Below the pieces are notes generated by a model. That model worked only from the letters and a program-made list of their open reading frames with translations, was not told the origin of the DNA and ran no database searches. A DNA stretch of 4,850 nt, taken from IMG/VR virus record IMGVR_UViG_2778261251_000003; one strand, given 5' to 3'. Both the position numbers and the translations under genes were made by a program. This document shows, piece after piece, positions 23-4,062 of this stretch (position 1 is its first letter; each line of letters starts with the position of its first letter). The stretch is from a virus (lineage: Duplodnaviria > Heunggongvirae > Uroviricota > Caudoviricetes).

Positions 23-337
23 TTATTTATCAGATGTTAGATTGTAATAATTGGTATAAGCTGAAATTGACTTCTGGCATGCTTCAAGAAATTCCTGTGG
101 ATTCATTCCTAGTCTTGCTTGCTCTGTGGTCAGAAAACGCTGTAAGAACTCATCTCCGCCAGGCATTTTTGTTGATTCTTGAAATGTTGCCATTTGTTTG
201 ATTGTGCCGCACATGCCAGCAAATTTCGAAGTTATCATGAGTTCTTGCAGGCCTTTAAGATCGCCATTATCTGATTTTGGTTTGGCGAAAACTATTGTAG
301 AGAAGAACAATATTAACAAAATAGCGATACGTTTCAT
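23..337 (-). CDS. hypothetical small secreted protein (104 aa precursor, about 86 aa mature) with Sec-type signal peptide; function unknown
   Basis: ORF track 23..337 minus. N-terminus MKRIAILLILFFSTIVFA-KPK has a basic n-region, hydrophobic core and V-F-A cleavage-type motif, with no lipobox Cys. Two Cys in the mature part (C43, C87). Its ATG (337-335) overlaps the mnt stop (336-334) as ATGA, implying translational coupling. No family recognised from memory. Confidence 0.6.
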   Translation of the reverse strand: MKRIAILLILFFSTIVFAKPKSDNGDLKGLQELMITSKFAGMCGTIKQMATFQESTKMPGGDEFLQRFLTTEQARLGMNPQEFLEACQKSISAYTNYYNLTSDK

Positions 338-585
338 TTTTCACTGTTGCCATGCATACATTTTAACTTCTCAACCTCATGCTCAAGCTCTATCAACCGC
401 GATGCTATAGTTGCAAGATCTAGTGCTTGAATATGTTTATTTTTTTCAGTCCATGCCTCAAGTGCTGCTACCATCTCAGCATTTAATGAACGAGAATTAG
501 CCTCAGCCAGTTCAATAAGACGTTCCTTTATCTCTACAGGAAGCCTCAGATTCACTTGAGGGTTTTTGTACTTACGATCAGACAT
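334..585 (-). CDS. mnt: Mnt-like ribbon-helix-helix transcriptional repressor (83 aa from ATG at 585-583; the ORF track's GTG at 591 would give 85 aa)
   Basis: Translation ...NPQVNLRLPVEIKERLIELAEANSRSLNAEMVAALEAW... aligns with my recollection of P22 Mnt (…HFNFRMPMEVREKLKFRAEANGRSMNSELLQIVQDAL…), including the RHH beta-strand and ANGRS motif. AGGA Shine-Dalgarno complement at 594-597, about 8 nt upstream of the ATG. 83 aa matches P22 Mnt length. Divergent from arc-ant as in P22 immI. Confidence 0.8.
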   Translation of the reverse strand: MSDRKYKNPQVNLRLPVEIKERLIELAEANSRSLNAEMVAALEAWTEKNKHIQALDLATIASRLIELEHEVEKLKCMHGNSEK

Positions 586-613
586 CGGCACATCCTGAAT
601 AATTTTTTACCAC

Positions 614-642
614 AGGATATGTAGGTATCTATTGACTATCAA
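614..642 (-). promoter_or_regulatory. candidate leftward promoter Pmnt (weak match)
   Basis: On the minus strand, -35 TTGATA (642-637), 17 bp spacer, -10 TATCCT (619-614); alternative extended -10 TGgTAAAAA (612-604). It sits back-to-back with the Pant -35. Hexamer matches are only moderate. Confidence 0.3.
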
Positions 643-660
643 TGCGTACCTAAATACTAT
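632..660 (+). promoter_or_regulatory. candidate sigma70 promoter Pant driving arc-ant
   Basis: -35 TTGACT (632-637), 17 bp spacer, -10 TACTAT (655-660). Predicted start near 667, upstream of the arc RBS AAGGAG (679-684) and ATG 690. Confidence 0.5.
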
Positions 661-678
661 GTATGCGTACCACATACA
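642..678. promoter_or_regulatory. candidate operator sites: 9 bp direct repeat ATGCGTACC (642-650 and 663-671) and imperfect 19 bp palindrome TGTATGcgtaccaCATACA (660-678) over the Pant -10/start region
   Basis: The exact 9 bp repeat occurs twice, 21 bp apart (two helical turns), bracketing the Pant -10. The second copy lies inside an inverted repeat with 6 bp arms TGTATG/CATACA. The position matches where Oarc and Omnt sit at P22 Pant, but the sequence differs from the P22 operators as I recall them. Confidence 0.35.
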
Positions 679-689
679 AAGGAGCAAAA

Positions 690-836
690 ATGAAAGTTAA
701 GACATTAAGGATGCCAGAATGGCTGGAAAAGGCTTTGGAGCAGTCCGCGAAAAAGGATGATCGGTCGTTCAGTAATGAGGTATTGAGGAGACTAAAGGAG
801 TCAGTAGCTAAGGATGGAATTGTTTGTCCAGAATGA
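690..836 (+). CDS. arc: Arc-like ribbon-helix-helix repressor (48 aa)
   Basis: Absent from the ORF track because it is under 60 aa. Hand translation: MKVKTLRMPEWLEKALEQSAKKDDRSFSNEVLRRLKESVAKDGIVCPE, stop TGA at 834-836. Aligns with recalled P22 Arc (…NLRWPREVLDLVRKVAEENGRSVNSEIYQRVMESFKKEG…), sharing L-R-x-P, RS-x-N-xE and R-x-x-ES-x-K-xG. Strong RBS AAGGAG 5 nt upstream. Sits immediately upstream of ant as in P22. Confidence 0.75.
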   Translation: MKVKTLRMPEWLEKALEQSAKKDDRSFSNEVLRRLKESVAKDGIVCPE

Positions 837-902
837 GTAAAGCCCAAGCTATTGCGAGTAGCTCGGGCTTAAATCGCCAGTAAATTTTGAGGAAAAACTG
901 AC
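835..902 (-). ncRNA. sar: candidate sar-like small antisense RNA (about 65-70 nt) complementary to the ant ribosome-binding site
   Basis: Strong minus-strand promoter inside the 5' end of ant (next feature) predicts a start near 901-902. The transcript would run leftward across the ant SD (TGAGGA 888-893) and end at the 840-870 hairpin. P22 sar is established as a 68-69 nt antisense RNA of this arrangement. Ends are approximate. Confidence 0.4.
840..870. terminator. stem-loop in the arc-ant intercistronic spacer; likely terminator of the leftward sar-type transcript
   Basis: 12 bp stem 840-851 / 859-870 (AAGCCCAAGCTA ... TAGCTCGGGCTT) with a 7 nt loop. The single mismatch (846/864) is A-C on the plus strand but a G-U wobble in the minus-strand RNA. 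The minus-strand RNA is followed by UACUCAUUCU (U-rich); the plus strand has no U-run after the stem. Confidence 0.45.
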
Positions 903-1832
903 ATGAAAAGTATAGCAACAGCAGTATCTACTATCAACGTGCCATTCCACGGCGCAGAGCTTTATGTCGTCAATCACAACGGTGAGCCGTACACCCCAAT
1001 GAAACCTATCGTTGAAGGTATGGGTATGGATTGGGCTTCACAGTTTACGAAAATAAAGCAACGGTTTAAAACCTCCATTGTGAAAATCACAATGCAGCTT
1101 CCTGGTGATGAACAGTGCCGTGAGATTATTTGTTTGGCACTTCGCAAACTTGCTGGCTGGCTGCAAACCATCAGTCCAAACAAAGTCCGCCCTGAAATCC
1201 GCGACAAGGTAATCCAGTATCAGGAAGAGTGTGACGATGTGCTCTACGAGTACTGGACTAAAGGCCATGTAGTTAACCCACGCAAAGCTAAAAAGGCGTT
1301 GCCGGGTAAAATCACCACTGAACAGCAGGAAGCCATTAAACAACTCGTCATGAGTCGCGGTCAGTCTCTGCCAAAAGAAAAACAGGCGAAGGCAATGATT
1401 ACCATGTGGTCGTCGCTGAAATCTCATTTTGGGTGTTCATACAAAGAAATCAGCGATGAGCAGTTTACCGAAGCTCTGTCACTTGCAGCTCGCGTTCCGC
1501 TTGAAGGCGAGTTAATCGGCAAACAAGAGAAGAAAGCAAACGAGCTTTCTGCAAAAGAAGCAAACAGCCTTGTATGGTTATGGGATTATGCCAACCGCTC
1601 ACAGGCATTATTCCGCGAACTGTATCCGGCGCTAAAACAAATTCAATCGAACTATTCAGGCAGATGTCATGACTGTGGTTATGAGTTCTCCCGTATTATC
1701 GATATGGCGAGAGACGTTTTAATCAATCACTCACGAGATGTTGATATCAATGAGCCAGACGGACCAACGAATCTTTCCGCATGGATGAGACTTAAGAATA
1801 AAAAATTACCTCCTTCAGTACATAACTACTGA
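903..1832 (+). CDS. ant: phage antirepressor Ant (309 aa)
   Basis: ORF track 903..1832. N-terminus (…INVPFHGAELYVVNHNGEPYTPMKPIVEGMGMDWASQF…) resembles the phage antirepressor N-terminal domain. Length close to P22 Ant (about 300 aa). Position after arc and before the tailspike matches P22 immI. RBS TGAGGA 888-893. Confidence 0.85.
   Translation: MKSIATAVSTINVPFHGAELYVVNHNGEPYTPMKPIVEGMGMDWASQFTKIKQRFKTSIVKITMQLPGDEQCREIICLALRKLAGWLQTISPNKVRPEIRDKVIQYQEECDDVLYEYWTKGHVVNPRKAKKALPGKITTEQQEAIKQLVMSRGQSLPKEKQAKAMITMWSSLKSHFGCSYKEISDEQFTEALSLAARVPLEGELIGKQEKKANELSAKEANSLVWLWDYANRSQALFRELYPALKQIQSNYSGRCHDCGYEFSRIIDMARDVLINHSRDVDINEPDGPTNLSAWMRLKNKKLPPSVHNY
909..937 (-). promoter_or_regulatory. candidate Psar promoter (minus strand) within the first codons of ant
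   Basis: Minus-strand -35 TTGATA (937-932), exact 17 bp spacer, -10 TATACT (914-909). One of the best sigma70 matches in the window, oriented antisense to ant. Confidence 0.45.
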
Positions 1833-1850
1833 CAGATAACCAACGCAACG

Positions 1851-1874
1851 ACCCAGCTTCGGCTGGGTTTTTTT
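1851..1874 (+). terminator. rho-independent terminator downstream of ant
   Basis: Stem CCCAGC (1852-1857) / GCTGGG (1862-1867) with TTCG tetraloop (1858-1861), followed by a run of seven T (1868-1874). Lies 19 nt after the ant stop. Confidence 0.75.
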
Positions 1875-1932
1875 ATACCCAAAATTCACCGTAGCCACGC
1901 TGCGGCGATTCCTTGCATCTGGAGCAAATTAA

Positions 1933-2271
1933 ATGACAGACATTACAGCCAATGTGATTGTATCTATGCCTTCGCAACTCTTCACTATGGCGCGTTCTTT
2001 TAAAGCGGTTGCCAATGGCAAAATTTATATCGGTAAAATTGACACTGACCCGGTAAATCCTGAAAACCAGATTCAGGTTTATGTGGAGAACGAAGACGGT
2101 TCTCACGTTCCTGTTTCGCAACCAATCATCATTAACGCTGCTGGATATCCGGTATATAACGGACAGATTGCCAAGTTCGTAACTGAGCAAGGCCATTCCA
2201 TGGCTGTATATGATGCGTATGGTGCGAAGCAGTTCTATTTTCCTAATGTGCTGAAGTATGACCCTGACCAA
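1933..2271 (+). other. tailspike N-terminal head-binding (particle-attachment) domain, ending at the conserved YDPDQ junction
   Basis: Residues 1-113; similarity to recalled P22-family tailspike N-termini stops just after YDPDQ (aa 109-113), the usual module-exchange boundary. Confidence 0.7.
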
Positions 2272-4062
2272 TTTCAGTTCACGCTCTCGTCAGACACTGG
2301 CGCAAATCTTGTCGGCATCAAGAGAACTGGACTGCCAAATAATAACTCTACTACTGTTGGTGCTTACTATCAGACAACACCTATCAACGCGGTAACAGAT
2401 TACGGAATGAAAGGGGATTTCGACCCGTCAACTGGATTTGTTAACGGAACGAATAACCGTTCTGCACTTCAACAATTGATGGATGATCTGGTAAATATCG
2501 GTGGAAACAAAACTGTAACCATTCCTCCGGGTAACTATTACTTCAACTTTGACGGTAGCACTAATCCTGGTGGTGTTGGGGTTATGTGGGGAAGGGTCGG
2601 TGCAGGGTTAAAGAATGTCACATTCCTGTGCTATGGCGCCACATTTTACTCTGGGAGCATTGGCAGACTTAACGGCATATTCAGCGCTAATTATGGTGTA
2701 AGGATAAAAGGCTTGAGAGTGATAGGGTTCGGCGGCGGAACGCTCGCTCCTTCACGAGAAAGGGATGCTATCTTTGCTCTTGCCTACAACTGCTGTGGGG
2801 TAACATTTGATGAGTGTTACTTTGCTAACAGCATGGGGGACTGCGTTTATCTTGGTGGCAGTCTTGATGACGGCTCTATAACTGGATTATTTTGCAGGGA
2901 TATCGCTTTTAATGGCTGTACTTTAAAAGAAAGATACGGGGATGGTATTAGATCTTACTACAGCGGATCTAGGTCAAGGATGGCTATTGCTGTTATCGAC
3001 TGCGTTGGTCTCAGGATTGATAACTGCAAAATAGTAGGCGGAATAGACTTCGAACCAAACGCAACAAACCAGCGCCTGCAGAATATGATGGTAGGTAATA
3101 CCAGGTTCCATGCAGGAAATGTCCTTGCATACACTGGAACAAACCCATTTTACGAGGAGCAAATCAATAGCGGAACTCAGGTTATACGTGGAGACATCCG
3201 ATTCCAGACGCGAGCGGGTGGGGTCATCACTCAGAATATTCATATATCTAACGTATCATTCGACTACGGATGCATCAGGCAGACATCTCTTGGTATAGCT
3301 GACGTTATTTATGAAAACATAAGAATGCGCAGGGGTATATTGGTGGTTGGTTCTGACTCAGGCACAAACTTCAACCCATCTGCAAACTTCAATGATGTTT
3401 ATGTTGATCTGGCTCTTAACGGTTCAGATGATGATATCTTTGAGTTGAATGGGTCAGGCACAACACCTCCTACATTGCCAGCAGTAGTCATGTTGATACA
3501 GGGAAATCTTACATACGCAAGATTTAATGGGATAAGTGGAGGGAATACCATCGGTGCATTTAGTTACCTGTTTTATGCAGATCCAACACACACAGCTGGT
3601 GATGCGGGGAGGAGCATTTACGCAAACTGCAGCATACTTGGCGGTAACCTTTACAACTACACTATCCCGGATAGCAGTCAGGAACTTGGAAACACATCTA
3701 TGCCAGCCTCCGGAGTTGCCTTTACAAAATACCGTAGGATTAATACTGACCTAATCATGCAGTCGGTTGGTGCTCTAAGCATATCCGCAAGCGGTTCAAT
3801 AGACTGGAACGCATTCAGAACAAGCAAATTGGCAGTAACTGCTACCACTACAGGCCTGCAAATATCAGGGATTGTTAATGGCCCTATGGTTGGTGCTGAG
3901 GTTCAGATAAGGAATAGTGGATCAAACCCCATAATTCTGGCTCACAGTACATCTTTCTATCTTAAAGGAACAACTAGTGCCACCCTTGACGATACGAGAA
4001 AGGTGGTGACGTTCCAGTACATCTCTTCAGGAGTATGGACGGAGATATACCGGAACTTTTAA
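1933..4062 (+). CDS. tailspike protein (709 aa): P22-gp9-family N-terminal head-binding domain plus a putative beta-helix receptor-binding/glycan-depolymerase body of unassigned specificity
   Basis: ORF track 1933..4062. RBS GGAG at 1921-1924. First ~113 aa ([43 protein letters not shown]…NVLKYDPDQ) closely match the conserved head-binding domain of P22/Sf6/HK620-type tailspikes as I recall them. The remainder is Gly/Asn/Ser/Thr-rich with repetitive short-strand character typical of parallel beta-helix tailspikes, but I do not recognise it as the P22, Sf6 or HK620 body. Confidence 0.9.

Follow-up and report, generated by a model that had tools for sequence, protein, structure and literature searches.

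An immI-type module with predicted non-P22 repressor and operator specificity at the right end of a P22-like prophage late operon

The stretch of DNA analyzed here (4,850 nucleotides [nt], hereafter the window) comes from IMG/VR virus record IMGVR_UViG_2778261251_000003 (Caudoviricetes). It corresponds to the right end of a P22-like (Lederbergvirus-type) prophage late operon and contains a counterpart of the P22 immunity region immI. From left to right it comprises orf104, an mnt-like gene, a control region, an arc-like gene, a sar-like RNA, the antirepressor gene ant, a terminator, the tailspike gene and a gtrA-like gene (Table 1). A previous reading of the letters without database searches (the sequence-only reading) had proposed that positions 334-1832 hold a complete immI-type module, arranged as in P22 but with different DNA-reading residues and operators. 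The module is complete indeed: every component of P22 immI was found, with intact frames, and the limits are exact: the stop codons of the mnt-like gene and of ant have their last bases at 334 and 1832, respectively. The arrangement, with mnt leftward, arc and ant rightward and the tailspike gene next, also matches in order and orientation the annotated P22 record (mnt, Pmnt/Pant with Oarc and Omnt, arc, sar, ant, terminator, gene 9). In P22 the divergent mnt and arc-ant genes are placed between gene 16 (ejection protein) and the tailspike gene; the same placement is found here, gene 16 being outside the window and two genes to the left in the 97%-identical copy of Escherichia coli TW10573.

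Table 1. Position and main characteristics of the features in and around the immI-type module (aa, amino acids; bp, base pairs)
Feature	Position	Strand	Characteristics
orf104, 104 aa	23-337	-	N-terminal signal-like sequence (MKRIAILLILFFSTIVFA...); PHROG 19844, unknown function, E 7e-64
mnt-like repressor gene (Mnt2), 83 aa	334-585	-	Ribbon-helix-helix, strand PQVNLRLP, C-terminal heptad helix
Control region	586-689		104 bp, between the mnt-like and arc-like genes
Predicted Pmnt	614-642	-	-35 TTGATA (642-637), 17-bp spacer, -10 TATCCT (619-614); 9/12 matches in scan
Box 1, TAGGTATCTA	622-631		GTA-centred pseudo-palindrome in the Pmnt spacer; position kept in 16 loci
Predicted Pant	632-660	+	-35 TTGACT (632-637), 17-bp spacer, -10 TACTAT (655-660); promoter scan
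Box 2, TGCGTACCTA	643-652		In the Pant spacer; 0 mismatches to TRSGTACSYA; conserved
17-bp palindrome, GTATGCGTACCACATAC	661-677		GTATG-N7-CATAC; embeds box 3
Box 3, TGCGTACCAC	664-673		Over the expected Pant start; within palindrome GTATGCGTACCACATAC
arc-like repressor gene (Arc2), 48 aa	690-836	+	Ribbon-helix-helix only, strand KVKTLRMP
sar-like antisense RNA	836-902	-	Two hairpins; complementary to the ant ribosome-binding site
arc-ant spacer	837-902		66 nt
ant, antirepressor gene, 309 aa	903-1832	+	P22_AR_N E 7e-45; P22_AR_C E 1.2e-26
Predicted Psar	909-937	-	TTGATA-17-TATACT with upstream TG; promoter scan, 10/12 matches; inside the first ant codons
Intrinsic terminator after ant	1850-1877	+	8-bp stem (hairpin 1850-1869), then T-run; terminator scan
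Tailspike gene	1933-4062	+	P22-type head-binding domain (residues 1-113)
Lone gtrA-like gene, 98 aa	4130-4426	-	Profile positions 13-110 of 120

The window encodes two repressors of the Arc family, one of which is of the Mnt type, with an added C-terminal helix according to structure prediction. This Mnt-like protein (Mnt2) scores 40.3 bits against the Pfam Arc profile (PF03869; curated cut-off 20.4), is 30% identical to P22 Mnt and has 1mnt as its closest solved relative. AlphaFold2 places helices at residues 17-29, 34-48 and 57-79 (mean pLDDT 75.6), the last of them a 23-residue C-terminal helix with L57, I60, L64, L67, V71 and L74 in heptad positions. The head of the protein, R-x-Y-K-[NH]-P-Q-V-N-L-R-L-P, is invariant or nearly so in 38 homologues, at overall identities that go down to about 50%. 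At the outward-facing strand positions, which we take to be those that face the DNA in Arc and Mnt according to the structural and mutational literature, Mnt2 shows Q10, N12 and R14. This is the triad of P22 Arc, while P22 Mnt has H-N-R. The label 'partition protein ATPase' attached to Mnt homologues (P22 RefSeq, PHROG 795 and PHROG 2685) was discarded as wrong, these being 83-aa ribbon-helix-helix repressors.

The Arc-like protein (Arc2), whose gene has a GGAG Shine-Dalgarno sequence 6 nt upstream, reaches 25.1 bits against the same profile (cut-off 20.4) and is 30% identical to P22 Arc. It lacks the six-residue N-terminal arm of P22 Arc and stops after helix B, without a C-terminal helix. 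Its strand has V3, T5 and R7 where P22 Arc has Q9, N11 and R13, and its head, MKVKTLRMPEWLEK, is nearly invariant in homologues with 57-65% overall identity. A profile search of solved structures with one of the alignments (A5) was not used, since P22 Arc was part of that alignment and the Arc matches were circular. The strands that the sequence-only reading had given for P22 Arc (PQFNLRWP) and P22 Mnt (PHFNFRMP) are correct, and those of the window, MKVKTLRMP in the Arc-like and PQVNLRLP in the Mnt-like protein, do differ from them.

Beyond the two repressors, the stretch between the arc-like gene and ant gives a full-length match to Rfam RF00262 (model positions 1-68, E 0.0067), at 29.3 bits, short of the gathering score (43). 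The stretch can be aligned with P22 sar and folds at -25.9 kcal/mol (z -6.1 versus shuffles). It has the size of sar (about 68 nt), its two hairpins and its location antisense to the arc-ant spacer and to the ribosome-binding site of ant, and a predicted promoter lies inside the 5' part of ant, at an offset from the ant ATG (+6 to +34) that equals the one annotated for P22 Psar. Given the finding of a sar-like RNA and of the predicted Psar, the module is complete, antisense layer included. The ant product is homologous to P22 Ant over its full length (55% identity, E 1e-114), and the terminator that follows ant has a P22 counterpart at the same position. Another terminator-like hairpin with a T-run is located at 544-571 (+), inside the mnt-like gene and antisense to it; it is formed by the codons of the invariant PQVNLR strand and faces late-operon read-through from the left. 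Terminator-like sites in the region amount to 4 versus 1.5 expected, which is not clearly above chance.

The predicted Pant and Pmnt stand back to back in the control region and overlap only at their abutting -35 hexamers. A fully overlapping Pmnt in the style of P22 was also considered, and none appeared in the minus-strand promoter scan. Comparison with related loci defined a 10-bp pseudo-palindromic box unit, T-R-S-G-T/A-C-S-Y-A, centred on GTAC, and there are three such boxes, each 21 bp from the next. As 21 bp represent two helical turns, the three boxes would be on one face of the helix. The sequence ATGCGTACC is present exactly at 642-650 and 663-671, and with up to one mismatch it has three matches in the window, a number reached in only 5 of 200 shuffles. 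Neither Oarc (ATGATAGAAGCACTCTACTAT) nor Omnt (AGGTCCACGGTGGACCT) has a match in the window with up to three mismatches, in agreement with the proposal that the operators are not those of P22. The operator-like repeats previously indicated at 642-678 are real, although the view of an architecture with only two repeats has to be abandoned, since a third box is located at 622-631. This box had escaped the sequence-only reading, as had the sar-like RNA, the Arc Q-N-R triad in the Mnt-like strand and the presence of the same control region in public phage and E. coli genomes.

Homologous loci were gathered from phage CUS-3, from a scan of species-representative genomes, from contigs encoding Arc-like homologues (Citrobacter, Symbiopectobacterium) and from metagenomic P22-like contigs. 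The genome scan, done with one genome per species, covered Yersinia, Arsenophonus, Phlomobacter, Xenorhabdus, Photorhabdus, Lonsdalea, Chimaeribacter and Pantoea; it gave only distant species, closer relatives coming from the E. coli and phage collections. In 15 loci from about ten genera (105 pairs), the 56-bp core that extends from box 1 to box 3 shows a mean pairwise identity of 86%, compared with 65% for the N-terminal coding DNA of mnt2, which is the most conserved part of this gene, 41% for mnt2 third codon positions and 38% for the leader beside the core. The 56-bp core is under strong purifying selection. Within it, the TTGAC of Pant is invariant and its -10 hexamer is TACTAT or TAATAT in 16/16 loci, and a TAnnnT hexamer is found at the distance of the Pmnt -10 in all aligned homologous loci. 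The two spacer boxes and the start-site box are as constant as the promoter hexamers, whereas free variation (TAT, TAG, ATT, GGG) is seen in the 3 bp that separate the two -35 hexamers. Judging from these alignments, ordinary promoter constraint does not predict the pattern of conservation of the core. In Photorhabdus temperata, box 1 is a perfect palindrome (TAGGTACCTA).

Four Providencia/Moellerella loci contain mnt2 without arc or ant, and yet four boxes (TAGGTGTT, TAGGTATC, TGCGTACC and TAGGTATC, spaced 10-11 bp) are located directly upstream. Because the boxes persist in mnt2 loci devoid of arc and ant, we infer that the Mnt-like repressor is the protein that reads them. The eight arc2 loci examined all encode the Mnt2 head, even where the C-terminal domain of Mnt2 has been replaced, and no arc2 locus without this head was found among them. 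The Asn and Arg that P22 Arc and P22 Mnt share in their strands, residues that reportedly contact bases (Raumann, 1994; Knight and Sauer, 1989), are also present in Mnt2. The half-sites of the boxes are TAGG and TAGA; similar ones occur in the P22 operators (TAGA in Oarc, TAGG in Omnt), and the likeness seems to fit the Asn and Arg retained in Mnt2. In loci L007-L010 (Moellerella, Providencia), around 100 bp from the mnt-like gene on its upstream side, a LexA-box-like palindrome (CTGT-N8-ACAG) comes immediately after the boxes, and in L008 a UmuD-like gene follows. This suggests that the repressor serves another purpose in these loci, perhaps in connection with the SOS response.

With all P22 immI components intact, and with reading heads and operators that differ from those of P22, the interpretation of the module as an immI of different specificity, already advanced in the sequence-only reading, is the best one that the sequence allows; the window would contain a complete, heteroimmune member of the known P22 immI system. 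Near-identity to a characterised immI was looked for and not seen, the P22 version having 30% protein identity and no shared operator. The set that defines P22 immunity specificity (the operators, H6, N8 and R10 of Mnt, and Q9, N11 and R13 of Arc) is not the one found in the window. We consider it probable that the module works as a heteroimmune variant of the P22 immI switch, in which the Mnt-like protein acts on the three GTAC boxes.

The scheme that we propose for this switch is as follows, its box-protein pairing, oligomeric state, direction of regulation and Ant target being those that we infer. In the lysogen, the Mnt-like protein would be made from Pmnt, probably together with the secreted orf104 product, and its dimers, joined by the C-terminal coiled coil, would occupy the three 10-bp boxes; according to the structural model, the heptad helix would let dimers on neighbouring boxes associate. 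Occupation of boxes 2 and 3 would cover the spacer and the start of Pant and keep arc and ant silent, while occupation of box 1 would result in negative autoregulation of Pmnt. Pant would fire upon infection, or when an incoming genome meets no matching Mnt, leading to synthesis of the Arc-like protein and Ant. The latter would inactivate a C2-type prophage repressor, and the Arc-like protein would then turn the region off again. The sar-like RNA made from Psar may pair with the ribosome-binding site of ant, so that read-through transcripts would not be translated.

Several observations weigh against this scheme. The degenerate pattern TRSGTACSYA, with up to two mismatches, has 14 matches in the window versus 12.15 expected and is not enriched; for this reason, the case for the boxes is built on the exact 9-mer pair, their clustering and phasing, and their conservation across genera. 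Much of the conserved core consists of -35 and -10 sequence, so its conservation can in part be explained without any operator. In two loci of Xenorhabdus (L012 and L013) the Mnt2 head is retained although GTAC boxes are missing from its vicinity. An Arc2 site could not be told apart from an Mnt2 site by any element, three Arc2 strand types being found with essentially the same core, and the sar-like match remains under the Rfam threshold, as indicated above. In L012 and L013 the Mnt-like gene is the second of a tandem ribbon-helix-helix pair, and other repeats are present in the divergent promoter region (TGATATCAAA in L012); these loci were treated as a different arrangement. Locating the Arc-like operator by covariation was also attempted and gave no discriminating signal, since strand types KTLRMP, SSVRFP and VSVRMP occur beside essentially one core. 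As for the ATTG-N5-CAAT palindrome between the -35 hexamers as a putative Arc2 site, its centre varies freely and its right arm is found in arc-less Providencia; the sequence comparison neither supports nor excludes this candidate.

An alternative that has to be weighed is that the division of labour of P22 has been maintained, the Arc-like protein acting on the inverted pair formed by boxes 1 and 2 and the Mnt-like protein only on the palindrome at 661-677. The Arc-like protein would then shut both promoters from an imperfect palindrome with 18-nt arms, centred at 637 between the -35 hexamers. The inverted repeat (I1, 618-635/639-656, 78% complementary) and the palindrome (I3) are both present, GTATG-N7-CATAC is retained in most loci, and the layout would correspond to that of P22, where Oarc lies inside both promoters and the palindromic Omnt over the Pant start. 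However, all three boxes have a single core, which two different strands (Q-N-R and V-T-R) would both have to read, and arc-less loci retain boxes of the TAGGTATC and TGCGTACC types. In addition, Yersinia, Lonsdalea and Photorhabdus have the box 2 sequence (TGCGTACCTA) also at box 1, as a direct copy. Altogether, we regard such a division of labour as unlikely in the window.

The core could also be just two strong promoters, with the repeats as a by-product and the repressors acting at other sites, if they act at all. The conserved block does include both sets of -35 and -10 hexamers, and the lack of window-wide enrichment of the degenerate box pattern would be expected. Nevertheless, it is in spacers and in the sequence after the -10 that variation normally accumulates, and here the boxes are constant and the 3 bp between the -35 hexamers are variable; an exact 9-mer duplication at helical phasing is likewise unaccounted for. 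Operators in their own promoters are, moreover, the rule for autoregulated genes of the ribbon-helix-helix family, and we give this explanation very little credit. Finally, the module might be a decaying remnant devoid of present function in this prophage, given that its closest copy in an E. coli genome is in a prophage with insertion sequences and truncated genes, that ant of phage SEN22 is interrupted by a transposon and that P22-like 'ant morons' are often degraded (PMC2629481), but this is hardly plausible for a window in which the three frames, both promoters, the sar-like RNA and the terminator are all intact, and in view of the strong constraint on reading heads and core across genera.

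The module is not unique to the window; it is a common allele, already present in public genomes. The control region was found with 95-100% identity in 146 of 5,426 complete E. coli genomes (around 2.7%), including UTI89 and an O104:H4 strain, and among 50,697 phage records it was found in CUS-3 and SEN22 only. The window carries the traits that identify the Mnt2/Arc2 type of CUS-3, SEN22 and enterobacterial prophages, namely the heads RxYK[NH]PQVNLRLP and MKVKTLRMP and the core CTATTGAC-N3-CAATGCGTACC...TATGTATGCGTACC. Many E. coli genomes (H97-H103) match the control region up to about position 684 and then diverge, as does CUS-3; positions 684-690 mark an abrupt recombination breakpoint immediately ahead of the arc start codon. 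A single control region and a single N-terminal head are thus common to at least two arc alleles, which are 57% identical. The same core and both heads are also present in other settings in a Citrobacter koseri locus (L028) and in two metagenomic P22-like contigs (L031 and L032). A lambda-like siphovirus has one copy of the core between its tape-measure and minor-tail genes, and others precede antirepressors with Bro-N and P22_AR_C domains, the C-terminal domains of their Mnt-like proteins being unrelated. In these comparisons, the regulatory cassette travels as one block, whatever cargo it accompanies.

A broader and rather speculative possibility is that Mnt2/Arc2 constitutes a separate, portable specificity class, with an operator logic unlike that of P22, in which a single GTAC-centred box, repeated at helical phasing, would be read by an Mnt carrying the Arc triad. 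A shared antirepressor network acting in trans can be envisaged because the same core is found in podovirus late operons, in a siphovirus tail cluster and before Bro-N antirepressors; if it existed, prophages of different morphotypes residing in one cell would be linked through it.

With respect to the flanks of the module, orf104 is the next gene after the mnt-like one in the direction of transcription, and the two overlap in ATGA (start codon of orf104, stop codon of the mnt-like gene), an overlap that makes co-transcription and co-translation with the lysogen-expressed mnt-like repressor probable. Its product had no Pfam match. Since it is located where P22 has orf59a and sieA, orf104 is a candidate lysogenic-conversion or exclusion gene. 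On the other side, DNA similarity of the tailspike gene to most phages ends near position 2270, and the part encoding the receptor-binding region has a partial match to a few E. coli phages only (N7, HZ41, EC.P3 and E212); the tailspike is the usual domain-swap mosaic. The gtrA-like gene stands alone, with no gtrB or gtrC between it and the tailspike stop codon, and, as P22 has contiguous gtrABC at this position, it looks like a remnant of an O-antigen conversion operon.

Arc and Mnt are textbook models of DNA reading by a beta-ribbon and of the swap of specificity between repressors. If the boxes are read as proposed here, the Mnt2/Arc2 version, with an Mnt that bears the Arc triad and a short-headed Arc, would represent a natural experiment on the specificity of ribbon-helix-helix proteins. 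Arrays of short palindromic or pseudo-palindromic boxes, each of a size for one dimer and all on one face of the DNA, are known for MetJ (met-boxes), the omega repressor (heptads) and CopG. In these three systems the repeat units, of 7-8 bp, are contiguous, whereas boxes of the window type are spaced by 21 bp in arc-ant loci and by 10-11 bp in the Providencia loci, and no homology beyond the fold is implied by the likeness.

The closest known system is P22 immI, which has mnt, arc, sar and ant in the same order and orientation beside the tailspike gene, with a Mnt-type repressor that has an extra C-terminal helix and an Arc-type repressor without it. Besides the repressors, the control region differs. 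In P22 the promoters are nearly superimposed (Pant 14793-14821, plus strand; Pmnt 14798-14826, minus strand), while the predicted pair of the window abuts at the -35 hexamers, and the P22 operators are one 21-bp and one 17-bp palindrome instead of three 10-bp boxes at 21-bp phasing. Heteroimmune alleles are part of the diversity expected in phage immunity regions, and the understanding of the switch mechanism is unchanged by this one. It would, on the other hand, define a second immI immunity group, membership of which would decide which superinfecting P22-like phages induce prophages via Ant.

Among phages, the nearest counterparts are those of CUS-3 (CP000711, a phage of E. coli K1) and SEN22 (a Salmonella phage), whose Mnt-like proteins are 93% and 88% identical, respectively, to that of the window, and both of which carry a homologous ant. 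The region is placed between the ejection-protein genes and the tailspike gene in CUS-3, and likewise in SEN22. No functional or experimental work on the Mnt2/Arc2 version, CUS-3 and SEN22 included, was found in literature searches. RefSeq labels such genes 'Arc family DNA-binding protein', and the SEN22 copy 'Arc-like repressor'. Ten types of this part of the genome, a highly variable 'ant moron', have been distinguished among sixteen genomes, the P22 version being the only one that had been studied (Villafane et al., 2008; PMC2629481), and for E. coli phage Kapi1 a transcriptome paper of 2026 says only that its mnt-arc-ant locus differs from that of P22. In the 2008 comparison, CUS-3 and HS-1 were considered to be apparently devoid of arc, so that they must control ant otherwise (Villafane et al., 2008; PMC2629481). 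The control region of CUS-3 differs from that of the window by two bases, and behind it there is an unannotated open reading frame (ORF) for an Arc-like protein of 46 aa (3359-3499, MKVKTLRMPEKLEK...), within a stretch labelled 'boundary sequence'. This is a diverged allele of the arc-like gene of the window (57% identity) with the same MKVKTLRMPE head, and it is followed by a 67-aa Cys-rich ORF (3496-3699) located before a P22-like sar region. Two adjacent mnt genes, one of the P22 type and one of the window type, are also present in this part of CUS-3 (2724-3699 in locus L001). Given an Arc-like ORF behind a nearly identical control region, CUS-3 does have, as judged from its sequence, an arc of the window type, which corrects the published statement that this phage lacks the gene.

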